64,000 bases of DNA from assembly GCF_039555335.1 (NCBI RefSeq), contig NC_092647.1, forward strand, positions 18,820,946 through 18,884,945, written 5' to 3'. This DNA is from Amphiura filiformis. Its lineage: Eukaryota. The notes under the pieces are model-generated. The model was given only the letters and a program-made list of their open reading frames with translations, made no database searches and was not told where the DNA came from. The translations under genes and the position numbers were made by a program. Positions within the stretch are counted from its first letter, which is position 1, and each line of letters begins with the position of its first letter. This document shows, piece by piece, positions 5,126 to 46,236 of the stretch.

Positions 5126-5581
5126 CTAGTTCAAGCTGCAAGTTGCAAGACTGTGTGAAGCCTTTATTGCATTTTTGACATATGTGTAAAGCTCCTCTCT
5201 CGTATGAATTCTTTCATGTCTTCTCAAGCTACAAGCCTGTGTGAAGCTTGTGTTGCAGATTTGGCAAGTATAAGGTTTCTTTTTTGTATGAATTCGTTCA
5301 TGTGCTTTCAAGTTACCTTTCAGTGTGAAGCCTTTATTGCAATATTGACATAAGTAAGGCTTCTCTTTCGTTTGAATTCGTTCATGTATTTTCAAGTAAC
5401 GGGACTTTGCGAAGCCTTTGTTGCAGACTTGGCAAGTATAAGGCTTCTCTTTTGTATGAATTCGTTCATGTATTTTCAAGTCACTTGACTGTGTGAATCC
5501 TTTGTTGCAATATTGACATATGTAAAGCTTCTCTCTCGTATGCATTCGTTCATGTCTTTTCAAGCTACCCAGCAAACACAA
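5126..5581 (-). CDS. ZF gene A fingers 11b-15 downstream of the MITE-a insertion (continuation of CDS 6234-7523)
   Basis: Starts ..SLKRHERMH, which is exactly the missing half of the finger broken at 6260. There are 4 more fingers. One has a H-to-Q ligand change (HERIQ). Confidence 0.65.
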   Translation of the reverse strand: MCLLGSLKRHERMHTREKLYICQYCNKGFTQSSDLKIHERIHTKEKPYTCQVCNKGFAKSRYLKIHERIQTKEKPYLCQYCNKGFTLKGNLKAHERIHTKKKPYTCQICNTSFTQACSLRRHERIHTREELYTYVKNAIKASHSLATCSLN

Positions 5582-6259
5582 AACGTTTTCGACATCATTC
5601 GCAAAAGGTTATAAAAGGTTGTCGGAAAACGTTTAAATGTCGGGTTATATAAAAGGTACATTAATGGTATAAAACGTCTTCATAACATTAAATAACATTT
5701 GTTGGTAATTTACTGCACAGCAAACACAAATGTTTTACAGAAAATATTTAAATGTCGAGTTATATAAAGGGTATAAAAACGTTTTAATAACATTCCAAAA
5801 ACATTTGTGAAAACTTGGTACAAATCATTCCAAACAGAATGTTATTTTGGGGTTGAAAAAATATTTTGCAAAAAATGTTTGCCCAAAATATTTAAAATAA
5901 CGTTTTTAAAATGTTTTCACGACCTTTATAAAACCCGACATTTAAATGTTATTAAAACGTTTTGTAAAAAACATTTAAAGAACATTTCTGTGTTTGCTGG
6001 GTGCAAATATTTTAATATAATGTTATTTAAGTGTTGACAAAATATTTGACCAAAAATGTTTGCAAAAATAGTTTACAATGACATTTCGAAAACATTTTAA
6101 AAATATTGTTGTAGTGTGTTTTCATACAAAACGTTTTAAAACGATTTCATGACCTTTATATAACCCGACATTTTAATGTTATTAAAACGTTTTACCTAAA
6201 CCAAAACCCAAAATATAACTTATTTAAAACGTTTTAAAAACGTTTTTGTGTTTGCTGGG
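5568..6259. mobile_element. composite MITE-a insertion #1 (692 bp): TIR CCCAGCAAACAC/GTGTTTGCTGGG, flanking TA duplication, internal nested copy 5713-6004
   Basis: The ends are perfect inverted repeats. TA is present at 5566-5567 and 6260-6261. The internal 292-bp unit has its own TIRs of about 70 bp (CAGCAAACACAAATGTTTTA..TAAATGTCGAGTTATATAAA). It is 92% identical to the copy at 56483-57173. Confidence 0.7.
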
Positions 6260-7523
6260 TACCTGACTGTATGAAGCTTTTGTTGCAGATTTGGCAAGTG
6301 TAAGGTTCCTCTTTTGAATGAATTCGTTCATGTATTTTCAAGGCACATGACTGTGTGAAGCCTTTGTTGCAGTATTGGCATATGAAAGGCCTCTCTTTCG
6401 TATGGATTCGTTCATGTATTTTCAAGGCACATGACTGTGTGAAGCCTTTGTTGCAATATTGACATGTGTAAGGCGTCTCGTTGGTATGAAATCGTTCATG
6501 ATATTTCAAGTAACCAGACGTTGTGAAGCCTTTGTTGCAGTATTGGCAAATATAAGGCCTTTCTTTGGTATGTATTCGTTCATGTATTTTCAAGTTCCCA
6601 GACTGTGCGAAGCCTTTGTTGCAGTATTGACATATGAAAGGCTTCTCTTTCGTATGAATTCGTTCATGTGTTTTCAATTCACCAGACTGTGTGAAGCCTT
6701 TGTTGCAGTATTGGCATATGAAAGGCTTCTCTTTCGTATGGATTCGTTCATGTGTTTTCAAGTGACCTGACGTTGTGAAGCCTTTGTTGCAGTATTGGCA
6801 TATGAAAGGCTTCTCTTTCGTATGAATTCGTTCATGTCTTTTCAAGTTACCTGACGTTGTGAAGCCTTCGTTGCAGTATTGGCATATGAAAGGCTTCTCT
6901 TTCGTATGGACTCGTTCATGTATTTTCAAGGCACATGGCTGTGTGAAGCCTTTGTTGCAATATTGACATATGTAAGGCGTCTCGTTGGTATGAATTCGTT
7001 CATGTGTTTTTAAGTTCCCAGACGTTGTGAAGCCTTTGTCGCAGTATTGGCATATGAAAGGCTTCTCTTTCGTATGGATTCGTTCATGTGTTTTCAAGTG
7101 ACCTGACTGTGTGAAGCCTTTATTACAGTATTGACATATGAAAGGCTTCTCTTTCGTATTATTTTGTTTATGTACATTTACCTTACTGATTGAAAACGGT
7201 TTGTCAAAATTTTGACCTTGATAAAATACCAATTGCGAATCGTTCTCATTGGTTGGTTTGCTTGATGAACCATTACCACTTGTCCATTGGTCAAGAGATG
7301 GTGACGTCAAATAACCATCGCTTCTGCTATTATCGGAGGTCTTTATATTTCTGCTTGGAATGGGTATCAATTTCTTCTTATAGTCATACCAATATGCACG
7401 AATCCACAGCTCATGACGCAGATGACGCAGATATCGATGATTATTATTAAAGAACCTTCGTCTGCAATATTTACACACGTGAGGCATCAGGTATTCCCAT
7501 TCTCGTGGTCTTCTTAGAGGCAT
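6234..7523 (-). CDS. ZF gene A: N-terminal domain (about 135 aa) plus 10 C2H2 fingers and the first half of finger 11. The stop is provided by the MITE-a insertion.
   Basis: ORF of 429 aa. ATG at 7521-7523 preceded by ..CATTCATTGCAG. C-x2-C-x12-H-x3-H units with HTKEKP(F/Y) linkers. Confidence 0.8.
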   Translation of the reverse strand: MPLRRPREWEYLMPHVCKYCRRRFFNNNHRYLRHLRHELWIRAYWYDYKKKLIPIPSRNIKTSDNSRSDGYLTSPSLDQWTSGNGSSSKPTNENDSQLVFYQGQNFDKPFSISKVNVHKQNNTKEKPFICQYCNKGFTQSGHLKTHERIHTKEKPFICQYCDKGFTTSGNLKTHERIHTNETPYICQYCNKGFTQPCALKIHERVHTKEKPFICQYCNEGFTTSGNLKRHERIHTKEKPFICQYCNKGFTTSGHLKTHERIHTKEKPFICQYCNKGFTQSGELKTHERIHTKEKPFICQYCNKGFAQSGNLKIHERIHTKERPYICQYCNKGFTTSGYLKYHERFHTNETPYTCQYCNKGFTQSCALKIHERIHTKERPFICQYCNKGFTQSCALKIHERIHSKEEPYTCQICNKSFIQSGTQQTQKRF

Positions 7524-8090
7524 TCCTGCAATGAATGGTAAAAAGCAATCTGTCTAATTAAGGCAACATTACGAATTTGAGAAAACTATTTCATTATTGG
7601 GTTACTTGTTAGTTCTACTTTCACGGGACTGTTCCAATTGTATGCCTCCTTGTAGGCGTTTCTGATACAAATTATATGCGAGGCTATTCTTTACTTGATT
7701 TGGAAGTCGTTAAGGGTAGACGAAGCAATTGTTGGTCGAAGCAACCTAAAAATCGATTTTCATTATCTTGATCAATATATTATTGAAAAATTACACCTTG
7801 ATGTTTTGCAAAAGTTCATTCTACAAATCGTATACTTTGCAAACTTGCTTAATTTATTGTTGTTAATGAGTTATGTACGTTTTACAAAAGTGTTGTTGTT
7901 TCAGCCCTCTTTACAACATAACTCAAGAACCACAGGACCTACAAAAGTATATCTGTGATATTTTAATTCTTCTACACAATCGCTATGAATTGAGCAATGC
8001 AGTTTTTGCCAAAGCTCACTACCATTCGTACGATGCTGTGAACTACCAAATCACAACAGTTTAAAATAATCAATAACCTTAAAGACATTT
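7524..8090 (-). promoter_or_regulatory. conserved upstream region of gene A (intron 3' end/promoter). Homologous blocks lie upstream of genes B, C, E, G and pseudogene F.
   Basis: 7524-7700 is about 90% identical to 28556-28750. 7700-8070 is about 80% identical to 25480-25800. A splice-acceptor-like YYYYCAG lies directly before the ATG. Confidence 0.4.
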
Positions 8091-12960: not shown

Positions 12961-15540
12961 ATGTTTTTCTTATTTATTCAATCTCTTATTTATTTATTTA
13001 TTTATTTACTACTTATTTACCATTATACTTTTTTTTCTTCTTCTTACCCTGTCATTTGTGCTCTATCATTCATTATTATTCTTGGTAGGTTTCCGCCTCA
13101 CACCACCTGTGTTTCTACTGCCTTAACTTCTTTTAGTGTATTAAACCCTCTTGTTTTTGTATTAAGTGTTTTTCGTATCTATATAATTGTTGTATGTTGG
13201 TATTTTATGGCAGAAAAGTGTAATAATTGCTGTAAATTGATTTTAAGACATCATTCTCATATATCATGTACTTCTTGTAATTATTTATATCATACCCGTT
13301 GTGTTTATACTGATGTTGACAATCACCTAGATTGGTTTTGTTTCAAATGTACTGGTAACCTTTTCCCTTTTAACCATTATGTCGATGACGACGAGTTCAG
13401 ATTTGCCTTATTTTGTTTTGACAATACAATTGAGTTTAATCGTATGCTTAGTTTGAAATTAAATCCCTTTAACTTTGAAGATATGTTTCGGACATCATCC
13501 AATGAATCTATTAATTTGAATGAGCACACAAGCCCTCTCAATAATTGTTCTTATTTATTTGACAACGATATTACCTGTTCAGGTGATAATGATTTTTCAA
13601 TTTTGCATTTCAATTCACGTAGTCTCAACAAAAATTTTGATAACATTCATAGCTTTATTTCTGGACTAAGTCACACTTTTACAATTATTTCCATTTCAGA
13701 AACGTGGTTAAATGATGACAATTTTAATATGATTGATATTGAAAATTATGTTCTCGTTAATGCACCCCGACAAGGTAGAAGAAGCGGTGGCTCTGCTATT
13801 TATATTCATGATTCAGTTGCTTACCGTGAAAGGGAAGATCTTAAATTAATTGTTGAATCATCTGATGACATCGACCACTCTGAGTCTGTATTTATTGAAA
13901 TTTTAAATTCTGTTAACAAAAATATAATTGTGGGTAATATTTATCGTGCACATCGTACTAATGTAAATATGTTCCTTACTGACTTGGAAAATTGTGTTGC
14001 TAAATTGTCGTGTGAAAATAAGCAGTGTTATGTTTCTGGCGATTTTAATTTTGATTTATTACAGTATACTAACAATAACACAATTAATGATTTTCTCAAT
14101 ATTTTTTACAATAATAATATGCACCCACTGATTGACAGGCCTACTAGAATAACACCCACTACCGCTTCTTTACTTGACAATATTTTTACAAATGTCCTCA
14201 CACACCAAATAAAATCTGGTATTTTCGTTAGAGGCTTAACTGATCATTACCCTATTTTTCAAATTACCAAATCTATTCCTCTTACACACCCACGCCACCA
14301 CCAGCATACAACATATCGTTTAATTAATCAAAATAGAATCCGAAATTTTCAGAATCATTTAAAACTGGTTGATTGGAATTTTGTTGAAAACATAGGTTCT
14401 TGTGAGCCTGCCTACATGGCTTTTCTTAATAAATTTTCTGATTTATATAACATTCATTTTCCCTTGAAATCGTCTCGCTCTAGTAGTTCCAGTAGTCGTC
14501 GAACTCCTCGCAAACCGTGGATTACAACAGCTGTCCTTAAATCTATTGTTCGAAAGGAAAAACTTTACAGAAAGTATGTCGGTCATCCAACAGAGTCTAA
14601 TAAAACGAATTATCATGTTTATCGCAATCGACTGACTTCTATCATTAGGTCTTCCAAAAAAGATTACTACGCTGAGAAACTAGAGAATTGTAAAAATAAC
14701 TCAAAACGAACTTGGAATATTTTAAATTCCATTCTAGGTCGCCAACATAGGCTTGATCTTCCAACCATGTTTAACATCAATAACGTTTCAACTTCGGATT
14801 CTCAGCATATTGCAGATAATTTCAATTCATATTTTGTTAATATTGGCTCTAAATTAGCTAGCAAAATTCATCAACCAAATACTGATTTTCGTGAATTTTT
14901 AATTAATGCTCATTCTCCTGTTAACTCACTCTTTTTTTCACCCACCAACTTCGATGAAGTAGTCAATCTTTGTATGGCACTGAAGCCTGGGGCAAGCTGT
15001 GGTCATGATGAAATCAAACCCGAGGTTATTAAAGCAGTCAGCACCTTAATCGCAACCCCACTTGTCCACATTTTTAATTTATCCCTGTCTTCTGGTTTTG
15101 TTCCCCACCAACTCAAGATCGCTAAAGTTGTTCCCATTTTTAAGATGGTGATCGCCACGATTCTTCCAATTATAGACCAATTTCAGTTCTTCCTGCTTTT
15201 TCAAAAGTTCTTGAGCGTCTGGTCCACAAGAGGTTGTACAATTTTATTTCCCGATTTAATCTACTTCATAACTCCCAATTTGGTTTTCGTTCTAACCGTT
15301 CCACATCTATGGCCATCATGGAAGTCTACAATAAAATTGTTAACGATCTCGATAACAAAAATCACGCCCTTGGTATCTTCCTGGACCTCTCGAAGGCATT
15401 CGACACGGTTAACCATGATATTCTTTTTTCAAAACTCGCTCATTACGGTATTCGTGGGAATGCCTTCGATTGGTTCAGGAGTTACCTTACTGATAGGTCC
15501 CAGTTCGTTAACTTTAATCATCGTAAATCAATTCATTTGA
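12961..15540 (+). CDS. LINE-1 ORF: PHD-like finger, APE-type endonuclease and RT N-terminal region (real start probably ATG at 13207)
   Basis: PHD-like CNNCCKL..HHSHISCTSCNYLYHTRC..CFKC. Endonuclease motifs FNSRSL, SETWL, SGDFNFDLL, LTDHYPIF. The first 80 aa are low-complexity and not credible. Confidence 0.75.
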   Translation: MFFLFIQSLIYLFIYLLLIYHYTFFSSSYPVICALSFIIILGRFPPHTTCVSTALTSFSVLNPLVFVLSVFRIYIIVVCWYFMAEKCNNCCKLILRHHSHISCTSCNYLYHTRCVYTDVDNHLDWFCFKCTGNLFPFNHYVDDDEFRFALFCFDNTIEFNRMLSLKLNPFNFEDMFRTSSNESINLNEHTSPLNNCSYLFDNDITCSGDNDFSILHFNSRSLNKNFDNIHSFISGLSHTFTIISISETWLNDDNFNMIDIENYVLVNAPRQGRRSGGSAIYIHDSVAYREREDLKLIVESSDDIDHSESVFIEILNSVNKNIIVGNIYRAHRTNVNMFLTDLENCVAKLSCENKQCYVSGDFNFDLLQYTNNNTINDFLNIFYNNNMHPLIDRPTRITPTTASLLDNIFTNVLTHQIKSGIFVRGLTDHYPIFQITKSIPLTHPRHHQHTTYRLINQNRIRNFQNHLKLVDWNFVENIGSCEPAYMAFLNKFSDLYNIHFPLKSSRSSSSSSRRTPRKPWITTAVLKSIVRKEKLYRKYVGHPTESNKTNYHVYRNRLTSIIRSSKKDYYAEKLENCKNNSKRTWNILNSILGRQHRLDLPTMFNINNVSTSDSQHIADNFNSYFVNIGSKLASKIHQPNTDFREFLINAHSPVNSLFFSPTNFDEVVNLCMALKPGASCGHDEIKPEVIKAVSTLIATPLVHIFNLSLSSGFVPHQLKIAKVVPIFKMVIATILPIIDQFQFFLLFQKFLSVWSTRGCTILFPDLIYFITPNLVFVLTVPHLWPSWKSTIKLLTISITKITPLVSSWTSRRHSTRLTMIFFFQNSLITVFVGMPSIGSGVTLLIGPSSLTLIIVNQFI

Positions 15541-16370
15541 ATACAAGTTGTGGAGTTCCACAGGGCTCGATCTTAGGCCCCTTATTATTCATTTTATATA
15601 TAAATGACATTGTGTTTACAAGTAAATTCTTCTCATTTGTCATCTATGCTGATGACACTAATTTATTGGCTTCACATAAAAATCTCCATCACCTCATACA
15701 TTCAGCTAATATCGAACTTACAAAAATTTCCACATGGCTTAAAGTAAACAAACTTTCCCTTAATATTAAAAAGACCACGTATATGTTATTTAAAAACAAA
15801 CACAACACGCGCTTAACGTATCCAGACACCATATCAATAAATATTGAAAACAAACCTATCTCAAGGGTCTCTCACACAAAATTTCTCAGGATAATTCTTG
15901 ATGATTCTCTAACATGGCATCAACATAACACTTATATTACAAATATTGTTTCGAAGTATTCAGGTATCCTTTATCGTCTTAAACACATACTTTCTGGCTC
16001 AACGTTATTTTCTCTTTATTCTAGTTTGGTTTTACCACATATTCAATATTGTAATATCATTTGGGCCGACAAGAATAATTGCTATTTACAATCTATTTAT
16101 CTCAAACAAAAGAAAATTGTCCGTTTATGCACCAACTCACATTACCTTGCACACACACAACCTTTGTTTAAGAGATTAAATACACTTACAGTCTTTGATA
16201 TTTACAAATATCAAATTTCCCTCTTATGTATAAGTTCAAAAGTGGCTTACTCCCAAATATTTTCACTGATTATTTTAAGAAGAGTAATACCTTCCATTCT
16301 TATGGAACCAGGTCAGCTGAACTGTATAGACCTCACAACTTCAGAACAGATCTTGCAAATAACACAATGA
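15234..16370 (+). CDS. LINE-1 reverse transcriptase (post-frameshift segment)
   Basis: [42 protein letters not shown] (YxDD) motifs. Confidence 0.8.
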   Translation: MYNFISRFNLLHNSQFGFRSNRSTSMAIMEVYNKIVNDLDNKNHALGIFLDLSKAFDTVNHDILFSKLAHYGIRGNAFDWFRSYLTDRSQFVNFNHRKSIHLNTSCGVPQGSILGPLLFILYINDIVFTSKFFSFVIYADDTNLLASHKNLHHLIHSANIELTKISTWLKVNKLSLNIKKTTYMLFKNKHNTRLTYPDTISINIENKPISRVSHTKFLRIILDDSLTWHQHNTYITNIVSKYSGILYRLKHILSGSTLFSLYSSLVLPHIQYCNIIWADKNNCYLQSIYLKQKKIVRLCTNSHYLAHTQPLFKRLNTLTVFDIYKYQISLLCISSKVAYSQIFSLIILRRVIPSILMEPGQLNCIDLTTSEQILQITQ

Positions 16371-18110: not shown

Positions 18111-18489
18111 CGTGAAGATAATGTTAAAAGTTAGGTTAGAAAATATTTCCATTATATTCATTACATTTCTCTTTCATGTGACACCACTAAAAGGGTCATA
18201 CCTTCTTGAAATTTAAAAATATGTCCATTTCAGACAAAAACGTTACTAAGTGCAGAAATAAGGAAGTCATGAAATAAGGAAATAACATAAACTAACATAA
18301 GCTAACACTATCTTACGGTTCACCAAAAAAAAAGCTAATACCTTTTCATGGTTCTCAAAAACACTACTACACATCACTCAACCAAACCTTTCAACAAAAC
18401 GCCAAACGATATATTAGGCTCCTGACTGAGCAACAGTTGCTCTAGTTCTCTTTTGAATTAGCTCGTTCATATAGTTTTAAATGAGTTAT

Positions 18490-18794
18490 ATTTTGGGGTA
18501 TAGTTTTGGTAAAAACGTTTTAATAACATTAAAATGTCGGGTTATACAAAGGTCATCAAAACGTTTTTAATACATATTAAAACACACTACAACGAACTTG
18601 TTGTCAAAATGTTATTGTAAAATGTTTTTGCAAACATGTTTTAACAAATATTTCGTCAACACCTAAGTTACATTATGTTATAAAAACGTTTTATACTCTT
18701 TATATACCTTTTATATAACCCGACATTTACACGTTTTTTGGCAATCTTTTTAACCTTTTGTGAATGTTGTCGGAAACGTGTTGTGTTTGCTGGG
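18490..18794. mobile_element. partial MITE-a (right TIR GTGTTTGCTGGG at 18783-18794) forming the 3' end of ZF gene B
   Basis: TTATATAACCCGACATTTACACG..GTGTTTGCTGGGG junction abutting a finger. The same junction is found at 26817-26828 (gene C). Confidence 0.55.
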
Positions 18795-19230
18795 GCGTCT
18801 TTTTGGCATGACTTCGCTCATGTGTTTTCAAATTACCTGACTTTGTGAAGCCTTTGTTGCAGTATTGACATATGTAAGGCTTCAATTTAGTATGAATTCG
18901 TTCACGTGTTTTCAAGTTACCTAACTGCATGAAGCCTTTGTTGTAGTATTGGCATATGTAAGGCTTCTCTTTGGTATGGATACATTCATGTCTTTTCAAG
19001 CTACCTGACTGTGTGAAGCCTTTGTTGCAGTATTGGCATAGGTAAGGCTTCTCTTAAGTATGAATTTGCTCATGTGTTTTGAAGTCACTAGACTGTGTGA
19101 AGCATTTGTTGCAGTATTGGCATATGTAAAGCTTCCCTTTGGCATGAATTAGTTCATGTGTTTTCAAGCTACCTGACTGTGTGAAGCATTTGTTGCAATA
19201 TTGGCACATGTAAGGTTTCTCTTTCTTATT

Positions 19231-19501
19231 GTTTGTTTGTTTGTTTGTTTACCCAGGTTGGTCCGTGAGGAACACATGCTAATCCATGGAAAACCATGGA
19301 CAGTTCCAAGCTCATACAAATGCACAAGCCTGGATAGCCAGTGTAGGCTAATATATGCATGTTGGCCTAGATAGCTTTGATAAACAAAGCAAGAAATGGA
19401 AGAAAATAGCTAGGAAAAAGAGAAAAGAGAGAAGGCCACTCCCAAACACAATTGTACAATTTTACTCTTAGCCCTTACTTCGTGAGAAAGGAAACTGGAA
19501 T
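19231..19501 (-). mobile_element. insertion of about 270 bp into a finger of gene B, with a (TTTG)5 terminus; SINE-like, family unknown
   Basis: The ZF consensus TTCTCTTTCGTATGAATTCGTTCATG is split between 19230 and 19502 by unrelated sequence that starts with TGTTTGTTTGTTTGTTTGTTT. Confidence 0.4.
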
Positions 19502-19677
19502 TCCAATCTGAATTCGTTCATGTATTTGTAAGTTCCCAGATTGTGTGAAACCTTTGTTGCAGTATTGGCATATATAAGGCTTCACTTTGGTATGGATACG
19601 TTCATGTCTTTTCAAATAAACAGAATGTGTGAAGCCTTTGTTGCAGTATTGGCATAGGTAAGGCTTCTCTTTTGTAT

Positions 19678-21193
19678 CAAACTGTGTAGACTCTCATTCA
19701 TCTGGGTATGTTGAAATTAAGATTTAATTTAAATCTGGTCAACCAGACATACCTATTTTTGACGGACGAACCGACGTTGCGACTGAAACCTTCAGTCTTC
19801 AGCTGGGTTGTGATGCAAATGACCTTGAGTACCGGACACTTCCGGTATTGATGACAATCGACGAGGAATGTCCTTTATGATCCTGTCCCAGCCGTGTGAA
19901 CACTTCATGAACGGACAAACTTGTCTCCTGATCAATTATGTGATCTACTTAGTCTCTGCTTAGATAACACCTACTTTTCGTACAGTGGAAAATTTTACCA
20001 ACAATGTCATGGATGTTCCATGGGTTCGCCCGTCTCACCGATTATCGCTAACTTGTATATGGAAAGATTTGAGCGCATTGCTTTGTCAATTTTTCCCGGT
20101 ATAGCGCCATCTAGATGGTATCGATACGTGGATGATACTTGGATTTTAATTAAATCCAACGAACTTGATAGGTTTTTCAACCACATCAATGAAATCGATC
20201 CCCATATCAAGTTCACGCAGGAAGGAGTGTCAAATAACAAACTCGCGTTTCTTGACTGTTTAGTGTCCGTGGAAGAAGATCGCTCCCTTACTGTGTCTGT
20301 TTATCGAAAACAGACACACACGGACCAGTACCTTCAATTCGGTTCCAATCACCCGCTCATTCAGAAACTCGGCGTGGTCAACACCTTGTTCCACAGAGCT
20401 GAGTCGATCATCACCAAAGACTCAGATAAGATTGCTGAACAACAACATCTTCGCAAAGCGCTGGGTAACTGTGGTTACCAGGACTGGGCCATAAACAAGG
20501 CCTTGAACAAGGACAGCAATAAACCCACCGCCAGTAGCACGAATCAGACGGGGAGAACAACAAGTATTACCATCCCATATCACGGAGACTTATCGGAAAA
20601 ACTCAAAAGAATCTATCGCGACCACGGAATTACCACCCACTTTAAACCAACGAACACGATCCGCCAGTCCTTAGTGCATCCCAAGGACAAGCAGCCCAAG
20701 GGGAGAATCAGTGGAGTGGTCTACGGGGTCCGCTGTTCCGAAGAGCAAGCCTGTCAAGACTCTTACATAGGAGAAACCGCCCAACCTCTTCACAATCGCA
20801 TGTTACAACATCGCAGAGCCAGCTCAGGTGGAAACGACTCATCAGTGTATTTACATTTGAAAGCCACCGGACACCATTTTGACACCAAGGATGTCCGAAT
20901 CCTAGATCGCGAGCATCGTTGGTTTGAGCGTGGAGTGAAAGAGGCAATCTGGGTGAGGGCTGAGCAACCATCCCTCAACCGCGGTGGCGGTGTCCGGGCC
21001 AAACTATCACACGGCTGGGACAGGATCATAAAGGACATTCCTCGTCGATTGTCATCAATACCGGAAGTGTCCGGTACTCAAGGTCATTTGCATCACAACC
21101 CAGCTGAAGACTGAAGGTTTCAGTCGCAACGTCGGTTCGTCCGTCAAAAATAGGTATGTCTGGTTGACCAGATTTAAATTAAATCTTAATTTC
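19678..21193 (+). mobile_element. truncated Penelope-like retroelement with inverted-repeat termini of about 195 bp (19713-19899 versus 21007-21193) and a 10-bp TSD TCTTTTGTAT
   Basis: Inverted repeats are near-perfect. TSD at 19668-19677 and 21194-21203. The right IR encodes the last 36 aa of the ORF. Inserted in a ZF finger. Confidence 0.8.
19921..21114 (+). CDS. Penelope-like RT (C-terminal motifs, YVDD) fused to a GIY-YIG endonuclease
   Basis: GSPVSPIIANLYME, WYRYVDDTWIL, then GVVYGVRC..YIGET (GIY-YIG). Confidence 0.8.
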   Translation: MSPDQLCDLLSLCLDNTYFSYSGKFYQQCHGCSMGSPVSPIIANLYMERFERIALSIFPGIAPSRWYRYVDDTWILIKSNELDRFFNHINEIDPHIKFTQEGVSNNKLAFLDCLVSVEEDRSLTVSVYRKQTHTDQYLQFGSNHPLIQKLGVVNTLFHRAESIITKDSDKIAEQQHLRKALGNCGYQDWAINKALNKDSNKPTASSTNQTGRTTSITIPYHGDLSEKLKRIYRDHGITTHFKPTNTIRQSLVHPKDKQPKGRISGVVYGVRCSEEQACQDSYIGETAQPLHNRMLQHRRASSGGNDSSVYLHLKATGHHFDTKDVRILDREHRWFERGVKEAIWVRAEQPSLNRGGGVRAKLSHGWDRIIKDIPRRLSSIPEVSGTQGHLHHNPAED

Positions 21194-22839
21194 TCTTTTG
21201 TATGATTTTTGTCATGTGTTTTCAAGTCACTAGACTGTGTGAAGCTTTCTTTGCAGTATTGGCACATGTAAAGCTTCCCTTTGGCATGAAGTAGTTTATG
21301 TGTTTTCAAGTTACCTGACTGTGTGAAGCATTTGTTGCAATATTGGCACATGAAAGGCTTCTCTTTCGTATGAATTCGTTCATGTATTTTCAAGTAACCA
21401 GACGTTGTGAAGCCTTTGTTGCAGTATTGGCATATGAAAGGCTTCTCTTTGGTATGAGTTCGTTCATGTGTTTTCAAGTTACCAGACTGTGTGAAGCCTT
21501 TGTTGCAGTATTGACATATGAAAGACTTCTCTTTCGTATGAATTCGTTCATGTCTTTCCAAGTCAACAGACCGTGTGAAGCCTTTGTTGCAGTATTGGCA
21601 TTTATATGGCTTCTCTTTGGTATGAGTTCGTTCGTGTGTTTTCAAGTGATTAGACTGTGTGAAGCCTTTATTACAGTATTGGCATATATAAAGCTTGTCT
21701 TTGGTATGAATTCGTTCGTGTGTTTTCAAGCTATTTGACCGTGTGAAGCATTTGTTGCAATATTGGCACATGTAAGGTTTCTCTTTCTTATGAATTCGTT
21801 CATGTGTTTTTAAGTTCCCAGATTGTGTGAAACCTTTGTTGCAGTATTGGCATATGAAAGGCTTCTCTTTGGTATGGATACGTTCATGCCTTTTCAAGTG
21901 ACAATAATGTGAGAAGCCTTTGTTGCAGTATTGACATGGGTACGGCTTCCCTTTTGTATGAATTTGTTCATGTGTTTTCAAGTCACTAGACTGTGTGAAG
22001 CATTTGTTGCAGTATTGGCATATGTTAAGCTTTCCTTTGGCATGAAGTAGTTCATGTGTTTTCGAGGTACCTGACTGTGTGAAGCATTTGTTGCAATATT
22101 GGCATATGAAAGGCTTCTCTTTCGTATGAATTCGTTCATGTGTTTTTAAGTTCCCAGACGTTGTGAAGCGTTTGTCGCAGTATTGGCATATAAAAGGCTT
22201 CTCTTTCGTATGAATTCGTACATGTATTTTCAAGTAACGAGACTGTGCGAAGCCTTTGTTGCAGTATTGACATATGTTAGGCTTCTCTTTCGTATGAACT
22301 CGTTCGTGTGCTTTCAAGTTACTAGACTGTGCGAAGCCTTTGTTGCAGTATTGACATATGTAAGGCTTCTCTTTCGTATGAATTCGTTCATGTCTTTCCA
22401 AGTCAACAGACTGTGTGAAGCCTTTGTTGCAGTATTGGCATATGTAGGGCTTCTCTTTTGTATTATTTTGTTTATGTACGTTTACCTTACTGATTGAAAA
22501 CGTTTTGTCATAATTTTGACCTTGGTAAAATAACAGTTGCGAATCGTCCTCCTCGTTCGTTTTTTTGCTTGATGAGTCATTACCACGTGTCCATTGGTCA
22601 GGAGAGGGTGACGTCAGAAAACCATCGCTTCTGCTCTTATCGGAGGTATTTATATTTCTGCTTGGAATGGGTATGAACTTCTTCTTATACGAGTAGTCAT
22701 ACCAATATGCACGAATCCACAGCTCATGATGACGCAGATGATGAAGATATCGATGATTATTATTAAAGAACCTTCGTCTGCAATATTTACACACGTGAGG
22801 CATCAGGTAATCCCATTCTCGTGGTCTTCTTAGAGGCAT
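21055..22839 (-). CDS. ZF gene B: N-terminal domain plus about 16 fingers. The last 46 codons (21055-21193) are read-through into the Penelope IR.
   Basis: MPLRRPREWDYLMPHVCKYCRRRFFNNNHRYLHHLRHH... ATG at 22837-22839 preceded by TTTCAG. Confidence 0.75.
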   Translation of the reverse strand: MPLRRPREWDYLMPHVCKYCRRRFFNNNHRYLHHLRHHELWIRAYWYDYSYKKKFIPIPSRNINTSDKSRSDGFLTSPSPDQWTRGNDSSSKKTNEEDDSQLLFYQGQNYDKTFSISKVNVHKQNNTKEKPYICQYCNKGFTQSVDLERHERIHTKEKPYICQYCNKGFAQSSNLKAHERVHTKEKPNICQYCNKGFAQSRYLKIHVRIHTKEKPFICQYCDKRFTTSGNLKTHERIHTKEKPFICQYCNKCFTQSGTSKTHELLHAKGKLNICQYCNKCFTQSSDLKTHEQIHTKGKPYPCQYCNKGFSHYCHLKRHERIHTKEKPFICQYCNKGFTQSGNLKTHERIHKKEKPYMCQYCNKCFTRSNSLKTHERIHTKDKLYICQYCNKGFTQSNHLKTHERTHTKEKPYKCQYCNKGFTRSVDLERHERIHTKEKSFICQYCNKGFTQSGNLKTHERTHTKEKPFICQYCNKGFTTSGYLKIHERIHTKEKPFMCQYCNKCFTQSGNLKTHKLLHAKGKLYMCQYCKESFTQSSDLKTHDKNHTKEKLRFNLNLVNQTYLFLTDEPTLRLKPSVFSWVVMQMTLSTGHFRY

Positions 22840-25300: not shown

Positions 25301-25799
25301 GAAAATAATCACAATTTTAAGTGTAAGGCTTCCCTTTTTGATTAATTTGTTTATGTCTCTTCATGATGTCTGACCTTGTGAAGCCTGTATTGGCATATTT
25401 AACGTTTCTCTTTCGTACGTTCATGTGTTTTCAAGCTACCTCATCATGTGAAGCCTTTGTTGCAGTATTGGCACATTTAGGGGTACACGATGTATTGTTG
25501 GTCGAAGCAGCCAAAATATCGATTTTCATTATCTTATATAATTGAAAAATAACACTTTTGTGTTTTGCAGTAGTTCATTCTACAAATCATATACTTTGAA
25601 AACTTGATTTATTGTTGTTATTTACAAAAGTGTTGTTGTTTCAGCTCTCTTTACAACATAACTCAAATACCTACAAAATTAAATATGTGATATTTGAATT
25701 CTTCTACACACTAGCTATGAAATGATCAATGTAATTTTTGCCAAAGCTCACTACCATTGCAAGATGCTGTGAACTACCAAATCGCAACAGTTTAAAATA

Positions 25800-25800
<1 letters not shown>
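25300..25800 (-). pseudogene. ZF pseudogene F: the conserved upstream block (25480-25800) is fused directly to degenerate terminal fingers, with the N-terminal domain deleted
   Basis: 25480-25800 is homologous to 7700-8070. 25305-25480 holds 2 decayed fingers plus the terminal motif AAGTGTAAGGCTTCCC shared with 47930 and 55925. Confidence 0.5.
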
Positions 25801-26579
<779 letters not shown>

Positions 26580-26580
<1 letters not shown>

Positions 26581-26828
26581 CAAAGGTCATCAAAACGTTT
26601 TTAATACATATTAAAACACACTACAACGAACTTGTTGTCAAAATGTTATTGTAAAATGTTTTTGCAAACATGTTTTAACAAACATTTCGTCAACACCTAA
26701 ATTACATTATGTTATAAAAACGTTTTATACTCTTTATATACACTTTATATAACCCGACATTTACACGTTTTTTGGCAATCTTTTTTAACCTTTTGCGAAC
26801 GTTGTCGGAAACGTGTTGTGTTTGCTGG
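26580..26828. mobile_element. partial MITE-a forming the 3' end of ZF gene C (right TIR at 26817-26828)
   Basis: Same finger/MITE junction sequence as at 18794. Confidence 0.55.
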
Positions 26829-27245
26829 GGCGTCTCTTTGGCATGACTTCTCTCATGTGTTTTCAAGTTACCTGACTTTGTGAAGCCTTTGTTGCAGTAT
26901 TGACATATGTAAGGCTTCATTTTTGTATGAATTCGCTCACGTGATTTCAAGTTACCTAACTGTATGAAGCCTTTGTTGTAGTATTGACATTATGTAAGGT
27001 TTCTCTTTGGTATGGATACATTCATGTCTTTTCAAGCTACCTGACTGTGTGAAGCCTATGTTGCAGTATTGGCATAGGTAAGGCTTCTCTTTAGTATGAA
27101 CTTGCTCATGTGTTTTGAAGTCACTAGACTGTGTGAAGCATTTGCTGCAGTATTGGCATATGTAAAGCTTCCCTTTGGCATGGAGTAGTTCATGTGTTTT
27201 CAACTTACCTGACTTTGTGAAGCCTTTGTTGCAGTATCGGCACAT
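26702..27245 (-). CDS. ZF gene C distal fingers (two ORF pieces, 26952-27245 and 26702-26950, separated by 1-bp indels), ending inside the MITE-a
   Basis: Finger motifs. The C-terminus ..HAKETPQQTQHVSDN.. is encoded by the MITE-a TIR. Confidence 0.6.
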
Positions 27246-28555
27246 GTAAGGCTTCTCTTTGTATGAATTCGTTCATGTGTTTTTAAGTTCCCAGATTGTG
27301 TGAAACCTCTGTTGCAGTATTGGCATATGAAAGGCTTCTCTTTGGTATGGATACGTTCATGCCTTTTCAAGTGACAATAATGTGAGAAGCCTTTGTTGCA
27401 GTATTGACATGGGTACGGCTTCCCTTTTGTATGAATTTGTTCATGTGTTTTCAAGTCACTAGACTGTGTGAAGCATTTGTTGCAGTATTGGCATATGTTA
27501 AGCTTTCCTTTGGCATGAATTAGTTCATGATATTTCAAGCTGCTTGATTGTGTGAAGCTTTTGTTACAGTATTGACATACATATGGCTTTTTGTTGGTAT
27601 GGATTCGTTCATGTGTTTTCAAGTTACTTGACTGTGTGAATCCTTTGTTGCAGTATTGGCATACATATGGCTTTTTGTTGGTATGGATTCGTTCATGTGT
27701 TTTCAAGTTACTTGACCCTGCGAAGCCTTTATTGCAATATTGGCATATGAAAGGCTTCTCTTTCGTATGAATTCGTTCATGTACTTTCAGGTCATCAGAC
27801 CGTGCGAAGCCTTTGTTGCAGTATTGGCATAGGTAAGGCGTTTCTTTCATATGAATTCGTTCATGTCTTTTCAATTCACCAGACTGTGTGAAGCCTTTGT
27901 TGCAGTATTGGCATATGTAAGGTTTCTCTTTCGTATGAATTCGTTCATGTCTTTTTAAGTTCCCAGAGTGTGTGAAGCCTTTGTTGCAGTATTGGCATAT
28001 GAAAGGCGTCTCTTTCGTATGAATTCGTTCATGTGTTTTCAAGTTACCATACTGTGCGAAGCCTTTGTTGCAGTATTGACATATATAAAGCTTCTCTTTG
28101 GTGTGGATTCGTTCGTGTGTTTTCAAGCTACTTGACCGTGTGAAGCCTTTGTTGCGGTATTGGCATATGAAAGGCTTCTCTTTCATATTATTTTGTTCAT
28201 GTACGTTTACCTTACTGATTGAAAACGGTTTGTCATAATATTGACCTTGGTAACATAACAGTTGCGAATCGTCCTCCTCATTCGTTTTTTTGCTTGTTGA
28301 GTCATTACCACGTGTCCATTGGTCAAGAGATGGTGACGTCAGAAAACCATCGCTTCTGCTATCGGATGTATTTATATTTCTGCTTGGAATGGGTATCAAC
28401 TTCTTCTTATAGTCATACCAATATGCACGAATCCACAGCTCATGATGACGTAGATGACGCAGATATCGATGATTATTATTAAAGAACCTTCGTCTGCAAT
28501 ATTTACACACGTGAGGCATCAGGTATTCCCATTCTCGTGGTCTTCTTAGAGGCAT
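27200..28555 (-). CDS. ZF gene C: N-terminal domain plus about 11 fingers
   Basis: ORF of 451 aa. ATG at 28553-28555 preceded by TTTCAG. Confidence 0.8.
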   Translation of the reverse strand: MPLRRPREWEYLMPHVCKYCRRRFFNNNHRYLRHLRHHELWIRAYWYDYKKKLIPIPSRNINTSDSRSDGFLTSPSLDQWTRGNDSTSKKTNEEDDSQLLCYQGQYYDKPFSISKVNVHEQNNMKEKPFICQYRNKGFTRSSSLKTHERIHTKEKLYICQYCNKGFAQYGNLKTHERIHTKETPFICQYCNKGFTHSGNLKRHERIHTKEKPYICQYCNKGFTQSGELKRHERIHMKETPYLCQYCNKGFARSDDLKVHERIHTKEKPFICQYCNKGFAGSSNLKTHERIHTNKKPYVCQYCNKGFTQSSNLKTHERIHTNKKPYVCQYCNKSFTQSSSLKYHELIHAKGKLNICQYCNKCFTQSSDLKTHEQIHTKGKPYPCQYCNKGFSHYCHLKRHERIHTKEKPFICQYCNRGFTQSGNLKTHERIHTKRSLTCADTATKASQSQVS

Positions 28556-28750
28556 TCCTGAAATGAATGGTAAAAAGTAATCTGTCTAATTAAGGCAACA
28601 TTACGAATCTGAGAAAACTATTTCATAATGGGTTACTTGTTAGTTCTACTTTCACGGGACTGTTCCAATTGTATGCCTCCTTGTAGGCGTTTCTGATACA
28701 AATTATATGCGAGGCTATTCTTTACTTGATTTGGAAGTCTATAAAGGCAT
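28556..28750 (-). promoter_or_regulatory. conserved upstream block of gene C
   Basis: About 90% identical to 7524-7700. Confidence 0.4.
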
Positions 28751-31900: not shown

Positions 31901-32470
31901 GCGTACATTGGAAACGACACCCCCTGGTTCAAAAGCCGTTGTTGACTGTGGTATCTCCGCACAATTATGCAGGCATCTGGACTCTAAATCTTCTCCGTTA
32001 TCCTTGTCCTTTTCATCAGAATCCGCTTCAAAGTTCTCAATCACAACCTAACAGAAAAACTAAGCGCTGGAAAAAGCGTGGAAAAAAAGGTGGTCGCAAA
32101 TCACGACTACAGAACCTTGAACCAAACCCCATCCCCGTGCTCATAACTACTAGACTGGTTTCACCCACCCATTGTCAGTCTTCTGTAAATCACAAGTTCT
32201 TGCGTTCATTTCAAAGACAAAATGATAGAAATGTTAACATTCGACAATGGAACGCACGCTCAGTCCGTAAGAAAACTGTGGCAATTAGCGAAAACATCAT
32301 TGAAAACGATGTTGACATTTTCGTGATCACCGAAACTTGGCTTGCTGAAGACGACCCAGTAGTGATAGGCGAACTGCTACCCCCCGGGTATTCATTTATG
32401 AATTTCCCCAGAAAAAGTAGTGAGCATGGCGGTATTGGTATTGTTCACAAAACCCAACTGAGCCTTCAGA

Positions 32471-33940
32471 GTGCTCCTACATGCCAGTGTAATTGTCAAA
32501 AAAACTGGACTTAGAATAATATCAATCTACCGTCCCCCTCCGTCCAAAGAAAATGGGTTTAAAACGAGTGATTACCTGTGTGAATTTGAAGCTTTCTTAG
32601 ATGAAATTTGTCTCACTCCGACAAAAACCATTCTCCTTGGGGATTACAACATTCACGTTGATCTACCTTCTAAGCCAGAGGTGTCTAGGTTTCTGGATGC
32701 CCTCACCGTCAATGGTCTTCACCAGCATGTTGATTCACCAACACATAAGGATGGTCACATACTGGACCTCGTCATATCACGTCCTGAAGATGACCTAGTG
32801 GACAAGTGTTGTGTTTTGCCAGGCTTAGGATCTGATCACAAGTTGGTATACTGGACCTTAAATTGTATTAAACCAGCGCCACTCAGGGTTACGTCAATTG
32901 TTAGGAACATTAAAAACATTGACGCGATTTTATTTGCAAATGATCTTAAATCTGAAGTTGGAGGTCTTGATGCTCGGGGTCCTGTCGATGAGATGCTCGA
33001 TAAATTTGATTTATCCGTGTCTGGTGTGTTCGACGTTCATGCACCTCCTCGACAACGATCTCGGAGTATCAAACCTCGGCTTCCTTGGTGTAATGAAGAC
33101 ATTAATGTTGCCAGACGTGAAAGGAGAAGGATTGAGCGTAAATGGCGCAAATCCAAGAGTAATGTAGATCTTGAAGCCTATGTTGAGCAAACTAAATATG
33201 TCAGTAAATTAATCCAGTGTGCTAAGGAAGTATACTATAATGATATTCTTGAGTCTGCCGATACTAAGAACATGTACTTTACCTTAAACAAACTGTTGAG
33301 TAAGAACACTAGACAACTGCCTGATGCAGAATGTATGATTGAATTGTGCAATTCATTTGCAAGGTACTTTACTCAAAAGGTAATTAAGATCAGAAATGAA
33401 CGCGATGCAACACCTGTTACGTATAATGCTGCCCATACTATACTTGATGAGAGTTCTAACCTTAACACACCATCTTTTTGTGAGTTTAGGCATGTTTCTG
33501 CTGATGATATCAAGAAAATTGTGCTCGCAACACCTAACAAGACTAGTTCTTTAGACACAATTCCTATGGAGTTGCTCAAAGATAATATCAATGTTTTGAT
33601 CCAACCTCTTGCCAGTATATCGTTCATCAATCACTCAGTAGCGGAGTATTTCCTTCAAAACTTCGTGAGGCGGTGGTATCTCCCATCCTCAAAAAATCCA
33701 CGCTTGACAAAAACATCCTTAAGAACTACCGCCCTGTCTCAAATATCAGGTACCTCTCGAAAATCATGGAGAAAATTGCTTGTGCTCAAATCAAAGATCA
33801 TCTCAGTACCAATTGCCTTCTTGAGGATTTCCAATCTGCGTACAGACAGCAGCACAGCACGGAGACGGCTTTACTACGAGTCGAAACGGATATCCTGTGT
33901 GCTTTGGACAATTATAAGGCTGTGGCTGTTGTGTTGTTAG
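32471..33940 (+). CDS. LINE-2 endonuclease and RT N-terminal segment
   Basis: See element evidence. Confidence 0.65.
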   Translation: MLLHASVIVKKTGLRIISIYRPPPSKENGFKTSDYLCEFEAFLDEICLTPTKTILLGDYNIHVDLPSKPEVSRFLDALTVNGLHQHVDSPTHKDGHILDLVISRPEDDLVDKCCVLPGLGSDHKLVYWTLNCIKPAPLRVTSIVRNIKNIDAILFANDLKSEVGGLDARGPVDEMLDKFDLSVSGVFDVHAPPRQRSRSIKPRLPWCNEDINVARRERRRIERKWRKSKSNVDLEAYVEQTKYVSKLIQCAKEVYYNDILESADTKNMYFTLNKLLSKNTRQLPDAECMIELCNSFARYFTQKVIKIRNERDATPVTYNAAHTILDESSNLNTPSFCEFRHVSADDIKKIVLATPNKTSSLDTIPMELLKDNINVLIQPLASISFINHSVAEYFLQNFVRRWYLPSSKNPRLTKTSLRTTALSQISGTSRKSWRKLLVLKSKIISVPIAFLRISNLRTDSSTARRRLYYESKRISCVLWTIIRLWLLCC

Positions 33941-34461
33941 ACCTATCCGCAGCCTTCGACACTGTAGATCATCAGATACTGTTGAAACGGCTTTCGAATA
34001 CTTTTGGTATTTCTGGAACAGTCCTGAATTGGATAAGATCCTATCTCAAGGACCGCTCATTCCGGGTGTGTCTGGGGGATAATTCGTCCATTAATCACAC
34101 GCTTGACTTCGGCCTCCCACAAGGATCTGTTGTTGGACCTTTATTCTTCAGCATGTATACTTATCATATCGGTGCCATCATACGGAATCATAACATCTGC
34201 TACCATATGTATGCCGATGATGTCCAACTTTATCTGACGTTCAACCCAAAAGTGGATGGAGACGGTCATCGAGCAGTGACCAGATTGGCAGCCTGCATTG
34301 ATGAAATTAGTGCATGGATGACTCAGAATAAACTGAAACTTAACAATGATAAGCCGTTACATTACCACAGAAAGTTGCCATCATCTTGTCCGTGCTCTGA
34401 TTCTGTCCCGGCTCGACTACGCCAATGCTCTGATGTTTGGGATTTCGGCCAAAGACCGTAA
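33673..34461 (+). CDS. LINE-2 RT core
   Basis: FDTVDH, YADDVQLY. Confidence 0.7.
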   Translation: MVSPILKKSTLDKNILKNYRPVSNIRYLSKIMEKIACAQIKDHLSTNCLLEDFQSAYRQQHSTETALLRVETDILCALDNYKAVAVVLLDLSAAFDTVDHQILLKRLSNTFGISGTVLNWIRSYLKDRSFRVCLGDNSSINHTLDFGLPQGSVVGPLFFSMYTYHIGAIIRNHNICYHMYADDVQLYLTFNPKVDGDGHRAVTRLAACIDEISAWMTQNKLKLNNDKPLHYHRKLPSSCPCSDSVPARLRQCSDVWDFGQRP

Positions 34462-34855
34462 GCAGCTGCAGAAAGTCCAAAACAGGGCCGCAAGAATTGT
34501 TTTTAGAGCCGAAAGACTGCATCCATCAGCACCGCTACTCAAACACCTTCATTGGCTGCCAATTGAACAGCGAATCAAGTTCAAAATCTTGCTTATCACC
34601 TTCAAAGGAGTCCACGGCCTCATTCCACCTTACCTCGCCGAATTTCTTCAGAGATATTCATGCGGTAGGCCAAACTTGCGTTCCAGTGATGACAGTCTCC
34701 TTTTACGCAATCCACGAACCTACAGAAACGACGGTGACAAGGCCTTCTACGCTGCAGCCCCCCGACTATGGAACTCCATACCTGCTTCCCTTCGTCATTC
34801 CTCCTCTGTCCTTGCTTTTAGGAAGGGTCTTAAGACCTATTTATTCCCCGGTTGA
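34346..34855 (+). CDS. LINE-2 RT C-terminal conserved domain
   Basis: RLDYANALMFG..LHWLPIEQRIKFKIL. Confidence 0.65.
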   Translation: MISRYITTESCHHLVRALILSRLDYANALMFGISAKDRKQLQKVQNRAARIVFRAERLHPSAPLLKHLHWLPIEQRIKFKILLITFKGVHGLIPPYLAEFLQRYSCGRPNLRSSDDSLLLRNPRTYRNDGDKAFYAAAPRLWNSIPASLRHSSSVLAFRKGLKTYLFPG

Positions 34856-35425
34856 TACCACCGCCTTATTCACGCCCCGTAAAATTGTGTTTTGTGGAGT
34901 TTTTATATGTATTTTGTTTGTTTTTATCCATGAACTGCTATGCCGGACTGGCATCTTTTATAACATGTGTTCATGCAGCATGCTCCTCTGCTTTAATCAA
35001 TTATTGTGTGTTTTTGATGTATTTTGCTTGCGTACATTTAAATTTGCTATGTTTTTGTAAAACATTTTTGCATGTTGGTTGCTACTGTTCTTCCAAATTG
35101 AGCTGGTCACGCTATGTATTTTATCATGTAATTGTTGTGTATATCGTGCTGCCTATGAGTCTTTCATATGTAATAGGCCCTCCAGCCACATAGCGGGAGT
35201 TCCATATTGAGCTGTTTTAAAATTGTATAATTTCCTGCTCTTTTAAATAATGAGCTGGTCTCGCTAAGTATTTTTAACTTTTTATCGTATTTCTTGCTAA
35301 ATTATTGGGTTTTTGTTTTCTTGCCATATGTAGTGCTATTTTTGTTGTTTTTATAATGTATTGTATTGTAAAGCGCTTTGTACATGAAAAGGCGCTTAAT
35401 AAATGATGCTTATTATTATATTATT

Positions 35426-44360: not shown

Positions 44361-46236
44361 TAATGATACTGAGATAAAATTGTTACTAATTTTGAGTTAG
44401 ATTCAGAATGCCAAAATCGGGGACTTCACAAGTGAAAAAAAAATTTCCACCATACTCCCATGGGACCAGGATTTGTACCATTCGAGAATCGAGACAGTAA
44501 CGTTTGCTTACTACTTACTTGAGAACTCTAGCTTCAAATTTGCACACAATAGTTTTACATGTACAGCTTTGTACGCATTCGATGCTATCATGCTCGAGTC
44601 CATTTGCTATCATTATTTCAGTGGATCTGCCAATCAGCACTGACATGTAATATTTCTGCTGATTTTGATGCAAGTTAAAATTTGATTGAGTCAACTGTGT
44701 ATTTTAAGGAAATGCTGCCTATTTTTAACAGTCTAATATTTAGTTGAAGTGCAAACTGCAATTTTAGCAACATTTTTGATACGATCTCCAGCAGTGATCG
44801 GCTGTATTTACTTACAGCTTCCCTAGCCATTGATTTCTAAGTACTAGATTTTGATAGGTCAGGACTCGTCTTTAAATAGTGTGAAGCTATCTGTGACAAA
44901 TTCGAAGCTAGACTTCTCGTACAAGCGTTCATGTGTATTGTGTAATTACACACACAATCACATGTTTATAAATTAACACTGTTTGAAGGCCGCAGTCACC
45001 TCGCACCACATCCCGAACCCCGAAGAATCCCTAAGTATAATATGTTGTAGTAAACCTTTGATGAGCCCGTACGTACCGTGATGTTGCAAAGTCAGAGCTA
45101 ACAATGTGTTATGTACGGCACAAAGTTAATTTGTAAATTTCCACTGACTCCACATCAGCAGATCACCTCTGCAGAGCTCTGCAGACAACAATCAGACAAG
45201 TGTGTTCCAACAAATGACTGAGTAAATTTTGTGATGTACACTCTCGTCAAAGGTTTACTCATGTACTCCAAACGCCATGCCATCAGACAGAATCAGTATC
45301 ATGCATGCATGCAATGGCTAGTATTATAATATATTTATAATATTCCAGTGTAATAGTATGTGTGCCATGTACAAATGTGAAATGATGTAAACATTCATTG
45401 TAATGTACAGATGACAGATGTATCATGCACGGGATCATGCAGGAATTTTAGACGGGACTATATGGACCTAGCCTGCGCCTGTCGAGCTGTATCAATAAAA
45501 TCAACAGAAATCAGTTCGTTAAGTACTTACTTTCTCGTTTTGAGATTTTCTTTCGTGCTCAAAATTACCAAATAGATGTTGAAAATTCGTTCAATTTTCA
45601 ATCAAATCTGCTCCCGTTGACAGATCGTGCCACGGCGAACGAAATCAATCAGCTGTTCAAAGGTCAAATCAAATTGATCAGGTCAACAGTCACTTCCGTT
45701 TCCCCGAAATATGGGGAACCAATCAGAAGAGTCGTTATATGTGCTCTTTTGCAGACTGTTTGTTAGGAGGATCGACGAGTGTCAGACCGACGCAAACTGG
45801 CTGTGTAGGAGACTACTGCCAGGTAAAGCGTTTAAATGACGTCAGGTCAGTTACCAATTTAATGGACGAAGCCGTTTGCCCGAAGCAATGATACCACTTG
45901 TATGAGTAGCCAGTCGGCAAATATTTATTTTTCAACCTCATTGTATACACCACCAAATTCTTTCGACAAGTTTTTTTTAATTACACGTTACCTCTCGTAG
46001 GTTCTAGATGAATAAGAAGAGGTGTTTGTACACTACCGAAGAACGAAGAATAACGGACGGAGATTCAGTGAAGAAAGAAATTGTTCTAGATACACACCAT
46101 ACACATCGAACTTCTATTGACGCAGTACTAAAGCACTTACTTTGCTGAGAAAAGTAAGCACAAGTACACGTGGATTGATTTATTATAGGACTTGAGTTTG
46201 GAATCTTACCTTCAGAATTTCATAGACTAATGACTA

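Follow-up and report, generated by a model that had tools for sequence, protein, structure and literature searches.

The window examined here, a stretch of 64,000 nucleotides from Amphiura filiformis, is eukaryotic DNA with 36% GC that carries seven arrays of C2H2 zinc fingers, all of them encoded on the minus strand. The seven arrays comprise 82 minus-strand C2H2 matches, and an additional chance match on the plus strand, at 18759-18821, brings the total to 83. The arrays consist of tandem C-x2-C-x12-H-x3-H units that are recognized by Pfam, the typical unit being CQYCNKGFTQSGNLKTHERIH, with the linker HTKEKPY, as is characteristic of C2H2 poly-zinc-finger genes. The arrays that are most relevant for the present analysis, all on the minus strand, are B' (22463-21194), B (19677-18795), C (28183-26830) and D (26577-25387). 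In particular, the long open reading frame (ORF) of C, at 27200-28555, matches the zf-C2H2 and zf-H2C2_2 families of Pfam with E values of 2.4e-56 and 3.2e-63, respectively. The database relatives of the full C ORF are all at most 53% identical to it, the nearest ones showing 45-49% identity, with the top two coming from echinoderms (Acanthaster and Amphiura), and an exact-protein look-up yielded no exact match for this ORF.

The cluster is riddled with transposable elements (TEs). Between the zinc-finger arrays, the plus strand carries two LINE-like ORFs, 12961-16370 and 31939-35060, with RVT_1 matches in Pfam (E values of 2e-30 and 7e-33, respectively) along with an Exo_endo_phos_2 endonuclease. 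Long intact zinc-finger ORFs are present on the minus strand at 6234-7523, 57149-58642 and 21055-22839 (429, 497 and 594 codons, respectively), and each of these terminates a few codons inside a TE, namely, a composite copy of the MITE-a family at 6259, another composite MITE-a at 57173, and an RT-bearing element at 21193. The fingers downstream of the MITEs at 6259 and 57173 stay in frame once 694 and 693 bp, respectively, are conceptually excised, so these two insertions look recent.

Judging from the features of its copies, MITE-a is a real MITE family. The terminal inverted repeat (TIR), CCCAGCAAACAC / GTGTTTGCTGGG, was found at both ends of the copies at 5568-6259 and 56483-57173, and further instances mark the inner nested copy and the proximal end of the MITEs in arrays B and C; altogether, the window contains 11 TIR termini, compared with 0.17 expected, and 12 occurrences of a conserved subterminal motif. 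The unit is approximately 320-350 bp long, is devoid of coding capacity and is present in at least six copies in the 64 kb. The two reference copies, both composite (nested) and on the minus strand, are located in a finger of array A (5568-6259, with the target site duplication (TSD) TA) and in a linker of array F (56483-57173, with the TSD AT), and their conceptual excision restores CAG TCA GGT AGC TTG and CCT TAC ATA TGC CAA, respectively. The copy in B (18474-18794, plus strand, 321 bp) has an intact proximal TIR and lacks about 29 bp of the distal one; as DNA, it folds into a long hairpin, with a dG of -44.6 kcal/mol and a z of -4.5. The copy in C (26578-26829, plus strand, 252 bp) is truncated 70 bp further than the one in B and is joined to a finger of fragment D. 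A literature search with the TIR returned chance primer hits only, within the searchable literature, and the MITE core is absent from the metagenome contigs scanned, as is the 27-mer junction from the prokaryote genome contigs scanned.

The feature of interest is the junction between a zinc finger and the proximal end of MITE-a, which we observed in identical form in B and C. The 17-mer GTGTTTGCTGGGGCGTC occurs exactly twice on the plus strand of the window, at 18783-18799 in B and at 26818-26834 in C, where about 0.01 occurrences would be expected by chance; a third match, with two mismatches, at 46232-46248 on the minus strand, is another MITE end. Within the B junction, which like that of C belongs to a minus-strand gene, positions 18783-18794 are the terminal 12 bp of the MITE-a TIR GTGTTTGCTGGG, and positions 18795-18799 are finger-linker sequence (..AAG ACG C on the gene strand, up to the boundary). 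The boundary between MITE and finger thus lies between 18794 and 18795 in B, given that homology to the family copies ends at 18794, which corresponds to their last base (5568 and 56483), and between 26829 and 26830 in C; the ends of the copies at 5568-6259 and 56483-57173 are themselves fixed by the TSDs and by the finger codons that re-form on excision. Self-BLAST joins the two regions, on the minus strand of B (18544-19224, with five fingers and part of the MITE) and of C (26578-27260), in a single HSP with 95.5% identity over 683 bp, in which 6 of the 251 positions in the MITE part and 23 of the 430 in the finger part are mismatched. A nucleotide alignment produced with MAFFT places the junction of both copies in one common column. 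The original prediction, made from this stretch of DNA alone, that B and C share an identical junction of a finger and MITE-a is therefore borne out, the position of the junction being the same in both copies; the interval given for C, 26817-26828, is one base too low. It also held that the MITE in C is truncated and fused to the pseudogene fragment D, which agrees with the cut at 26578, where the element abuts finger sequence, although the MITE in B is truncated as well.

On the far side of the MITE, finger-derived sequence is present in both B and C, so the element sat inside an array. In B, the finger-end and linker remnant ATGAACGA..AAAGAGAA lies directly distal to the truncated MITE (18446-18470, minus strand), with a local alignment score of 25 against a shuffle mean of 14.2, a score that is reached by 8 of 2000 shuffles. 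In C, the MITE abuts TGCAATAAAGGCTTCACA, which corresponds to the residues C-N-K-G-F-T of the finger that begins fragment D. This fragment (25387-26577, minus strand) is a degenerate finger array that extends from the truncated MITE of C, contains internal stops and is interrupted by a TTAA-flanked element at 25477-25813. A single deletion of approximately 115 bp would convert an arrangement of linker, MITE and next finger into the C/D joint, so fragment D may simply be what is left, downstream, of the array that held the MITE; a deletion that fused two neighbouring genes is an equally possible origin of the joint. The downstream flank of B showed no significant similarity to the 3' flank of D or of any other array. 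A stretch common to B and D, AAAGAGAA(C/G)..TAGCAACT, was considered as a canonical stop codon and 3' UTR and was dropped; its version in D is the end of the TTAA-flanked element, which is also found at 7710-8082. The two copies of this element, approximately 340-370 bp in size, are 81% identical and reside, respectively, in a linker of D (25477-25813) and upstream of array A (7710-8082); at the site homologous to that in A, C lacks the element and presents an empty site (28739/28742).

Both copies of the shared block are damaged. In B, the ORF with the tail (18727-18999, minus strand) consists of 90 codons and is MITE-encoded from 18794 to its terminal TAA (18727-18729). Another in-frame TAA (19054-19056, minus strand), which corresponds to AAA in C, precedes the tail by three fingers. 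Further upstream, a finger linker of B is interrupted by a 279-bp, retroposon-like insertion (19227-19505, minus strand) that has an (AAAC)n tail, introduces an in-frame stop and is absent from C. This insertion is unique in the window and, the Rfam and tRNA scans of the window being empty, has no match and is not classed as a tRNA-derived SINE. Next, an RT-bearing element of 1.48 kb (19713-21193, plus strand), bounded by perfect inverted termini of 187 bp and containing an RVT_1 fragment, separates the B block from the intact B' array (21194-22463), which is part of the 594-codon ORF. The termini of this element are 100% identical and flanked by TTAA, and it contains an ORF whose partial reverse-transcriptase domain matches RVT_1 of Pfam with an E value of 1.8e-08; inverted termini surrounding an RT fragment are unusual. 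The penultimate finger (18892-18954, minus strand, in B and approximately 26927-26989 in C) has lost two zinc ligands in both copies (Cys2->Tyr and His1->Arg, CQYYNKGF.QLGNLK.RERIH), and the sharing of both replacements implies that this defect is ancestral.

The lesions in C are of a different kind. Here, the ORF with the tail (26702-26950, minus strand) consists of 82 codons and has a longer tail than that of B, owing to a 1-bp indel in the MITE at about 18751 in B and 26787 in C. An A4/T4 run where the shared block begins on its upstream side (27258-27260, minus strand) has lost 1 bp, and the resulting -1 frameshift ends the 451-codon ORF 27200-28555 at 27200; the original frame is regained through a 1-bp insertion (26990-26991, minus strand), only after an intervening stop that follows the peptide SQSQVS. 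The -1 frameshift, being at a homopolymer position, could be an assembly error.

The minus-strand translations across the junction are HERSHAKKTPQQTQHVSDNIHKRLKRLPKNV in B and HERSHAKETPQQTQHVSDNVRKRLKKIAKKRVNVGLYKVYIKSIKRFYNIM in C, each followed by a stop codon, and the gene-strand reading in both is ...THERSHAK(K/E)TPQQTQHVSDN(I/V)(H/R)KRLK... Past KRLK, the two diverge: B ends with ..KRLKRLPKNV and C with ..KRLKKIAKKRVNVGLYKVYIKSIKRFYNIM, the 1-bp indel in the MITE having replaced the last 6 residues of B with 26 different ones in C. Thus, the proposal that both proteins carry the same tail is valid up to KRLK and fails beyond this point, and the tail ORFs are, moreover, detached from those upstream. 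Neither tail ORF is continuous with an intact upstream ORF, given the TAA and the two TE insertions in B and the -1 frameshift in C. Over 23 codons, a small sample, the tail shows two nonsynonymous and no synonymous substitutions plus the frameshifting indel, a pattern that does not indicate purifying selection on the TE-derived peptide. A protein search with the tail peptide found no protein with common words. The five shared fingers, by contrast with the tail, have a pN/pS of approximately 0.42 (15 nonsynonymous and 8 synonymous differences; Fisher p 0.048), so constraint may have persisted on at least one copy, with its MITE tail, during some of the period after the split. A hexamer search found no AATAAA on the gene strand of the MITE; the B copy of the element contains ATTAAA at 18571 and 18524 and the C copy at 26605, the background frequency of such hexamers being 2.3 per kb. 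Taken as a whole, the MITE-encoded tail is probably not a protein tail today, and the junctions as they stand most likely represent inert scars in pseudogenised 3' regions, the lack of function being what we infer from these lesions.

The history that we consider highly probable is that a single MITE-a insertion occurred in a finger array, that the resulting patch was copied to a second gene and that both copies then decayed. Specifically, an element with the TIR CCCAGCAAACAC... and a 2-bp TSD would have inserted once into a member of the tandem minus-strand C2H2 zinc-finger cluster, within its finger array and just after the proline of a linker (H-A-K-K/E-T-P). The TIR would have been open, by chance, in the frame of the gene for about 23 codons before a TAA, truncating the array and adding a short junk tail. 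A segment that included at least five fingers and the MITE would then have been copied to a second gene 8 kb away, through unequal crossing-over or segmental duplication, or else through gene conversion, which would explain why the junction is identical in both copies. The copies would have decayed independently, each losing the distal MITE end to a different deletion; B would have gained a nonsense codon and two more TEs, C two frameshifts, and the tail would have been altered by the 1-bp indel. A counterpoint is that the distal end of the MITE is deleted in both B and C, which leaves no recognisable TSD partner at the proximal junction and makes clean transposition at this exact site presumptive.

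The single origin of the junction, which arose in one insertion and was then copied as DNA, is apparent from the nucleotide comparison of the MITE copies. Identity amounts to 97.6% between the B and C copies and to only 81-88% between these and other members of the family. Relative to the gene, the two are oriented the other way round from the composite copies in arrays A and F. These findings point to one insertion event, separate from those in A and F. Two independent insertions of MITE-a at one preferred target in paralogous linkers would be the alternative, and some attraction of this family to finger arrays might be read from the fact that 3 of the 5 independent insertions fall in these arrays, whose share of the window is 13% (binomial p 0.018). 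This alternative, however, is effectively refuted: it would require hits at the identical base position and in the same orientation, and it runs counter to the mutual similarity of the two MITEs, to the 94-98% identity between B and C of the fingers adjoining the junction and to the disabling substitutions that both copies share; moreover, the other insertions in fingers are found at different positions and in the opposite orientation. The excess in finger arrays may reflect target preference or relaxed selection, the number of insertions being too small to decide. That the insertion preceded the copying of the block is secure.

The more delicate issue is whether the insertion also preceded the duplication of the genes. 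Conceivably, the MITE inserted after the gene duplication, and the junction was then pasted into the other gene via gene conversion or unequal crossover, a possibility that deserves tentative consideration although we deem it rather less than probable. The identity pattern of the cluster is a mosaic: the fingers of B' and B together, compared with C, diverge by 0-24% per unit, with extra fingers and TEs in B. Only 3 mismatches are found over 269 bp between C 27262-27530 and B' 21789-22057, and the next 420 bp contain 72; within this tract, the longest identical run is 210 bp, and the neighbouring fingers differ by approximately 17%. The tract is the product of recent gene conversion or crossover. 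Precisely at the upstream limit of the block, the best match of C changes from B' (21789) to B (19224), and a further 100 bp of the region upstream in C (28640-28739) is 100% identical to array A. Divergence by partition points in the same direction, at 2.4% for the MITE part, 5.4% for the fingers of the block, 4.8% for the N-terminal spacer of B' and C and 10.9% for the aligned finger region of B' and C (689 bp), although these differences rest on small counts; the patch that is demonstrably co-inherited spans only about 0.7-1.1 kb, and the flanking sequences past the MITE, and past 22922 in B', are unrelated. On the other side of the ledger, the block as a whole has diverged by 4.3% and the N-terminal spacer by 4.8%, values that are statistically indistinguishable (Fisher p 0.66) and fit one duplication of the gene at a single date. 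Because the cluster is a recombination mosaic through which conversion could have spread the junction, insertion before the gene duplication is not proven. With regard to the proposed sequence of insertion, tandem duplication and local deletion, we infer that insertion came before the copying of the block and was followed by distinct distal deletions in the two copies, and the intermediate step of gene or tandem duplication is left unproven by the mosaicism and the unrelated flanks; similarly, the contention that the TE-derived C-terminus predates the duplication of B and C is upheld with respect to the single origin of the junction and weakened by the prospect that the junction was copied between existing paralogs.

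Some further observations pertain to the block and its divergence. A simple tandem unit of 8,035 bp, with its joint at the boundary between the MITE and D, was rejected, as it calls for D-like fingers and collinear homology at 28.8-34.6 kb, where none is present. At the synonymous sites of the five shared fingers, 8 of 78 differ, as against 6 of 251 positions in the adjacent MITE (18544-18794; Fisher p 0.006). The first finger (19149-19218), with only 87% identity between B and C, accounts for 7 of the 23 finger differences, and this clustering suggests a small conversion patch derived from another finger.

A functional alternative to the preferred history of insertion, copying and decay is that the MITE was exapted before a tandem duplication of the whole gene, so that two functional paralogs would owe to it their C-terminus, stop codon, 3' UTR and poly(A) site. 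The frame is, indeed, open through the junction in both copies, with 22 of the 25 tail residues identical up to KRLK; the adjacent fingers bear the trace of weak past constraint described above; TE-supplied stops are common in this window, where three other long ORFs end a few codons inside TEs; and there are precedents for TEs that provide a terminal exon and its poly(A) signal, such as L1 in ATRN (PMC3554611). Nevertheless, we regard exaptation as very unlikely, considering that both tail ORFs are detached from those upstream, that the tail contains a frameshifting indel and its only substitutions are nonsynonymous, that a shared finger is devoid of two zinc ligands and that the flanks outside the block are unrelated. 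Furthermore, the finger-derived sequence beyond the MITE in both copies and the lack of AATAAA on its gene strand leave unsupported the part of the original prediction in which the element serves as a de facto last exon, 3' UTR and terminator. A more speculative, and in our estimation unlikely, extension is that truncation by TEs is a recurrent and tolerated means to reset the length of finger arrays: the ancestor of B and C would have worked for a time as a shortened protein with a stop and tail supplied by the element, as A, F and B' would today, and the version with the MITE tail would have been fit enough to be duplicated; MITE-a might also prefer finger or linker targets.

Shared TE insertions are markers of common descent, employed in tests of presence or absence across lineages and in the dating of segmental duplications. 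The present junction resembles these markers in that it is identical and effectively homoplasy-free and so points to one insertion-bearing template, which is the only firm inference to be drawn from it here. Unlike the usual cases, it is found in two paralogous patches within one recombining cluster, and because gene conversion can move the marker between paralogs, it is weaker evidence for dating a gene duplication. The feature, accordingly, is an ordinary but neatly legible TE scar in two decayed zinc-finger segments: a clean local marker of two finger-array segments that come from one template, which aids in reconstructing the rearrangements of a zinc-finger cluster full of TEs, and which reveals no new protein domain, terminator or mechanism. 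It carries two notes of caution, namely, that, in recombining tandem arrays, the date given by a shared TE junction is that of the copied patch, which need not be that of the gene duplication, and that an open frame across the end of a TE does not prove that the tail is made.

Among the known systems, the L1 element in human ATRN provides a spliced and expressed TE exon that yields a distinct functional isoform (PMC3554611). The likeness to such terminal exons consists in the in-frame read-through, the stop codon and, possibly, the ATTAAA hexamers, all contributed by the TE; by contrast with ATRN, no splice site is present here, the ORFs upstream are disrupted and the tail lacks conservation. 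Mouse KZFP clusters evolve by birth and death and comprise 'related genetic units', with many pseudogene units (PMC5363842). The cluster described here shares with them the grouping of paralogs, the duplication and deletion at the level of fingers, the pseudogene fragments, the abundance of TEs and the mosaic similarity, and differs from them in the absence of a KRAB domain (only C2H2 families were found in Pfam), in the linker, which is HTKEKPY and not TGEKP, and in the TEs, which here are MITEs and an RT-bearing element and not ERVs.

Stowaway or Tc1-mariner-like MITEs are short elements with TIRs and a 2-bp TA TSD. MITE-a is similar to these in its size of about 320-350 bp, its noncoding nature, TIRs of 12 or more bp, subterminal inverted repeats, hairpin and nesting; no autonomous partner or transposase was found for it within the window. 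The TSDs of MITE-a are likewise 2 bp long, although, unlike the Stowaway type, they are not always TA, this dinucleotide being found in two of the four cases (TA, AT, CA and TA). Another MITE-a terminus, GGGTTTGCTGGG, is located at 22923-~23215, in an intron just upstream of the finger exon of B', and the homology between B' and C ends at this insertion and does not resume beyond it. The copies at 5568-6259 and 56483-57173 (691-692 bp) represent one MITE-in-MITE composite, with 92.9% identity between them. They occupy different finger positions, between QSG and SLK in the former and between TPYI and C in the latter, so the nested pair has been mobilised as a unit.
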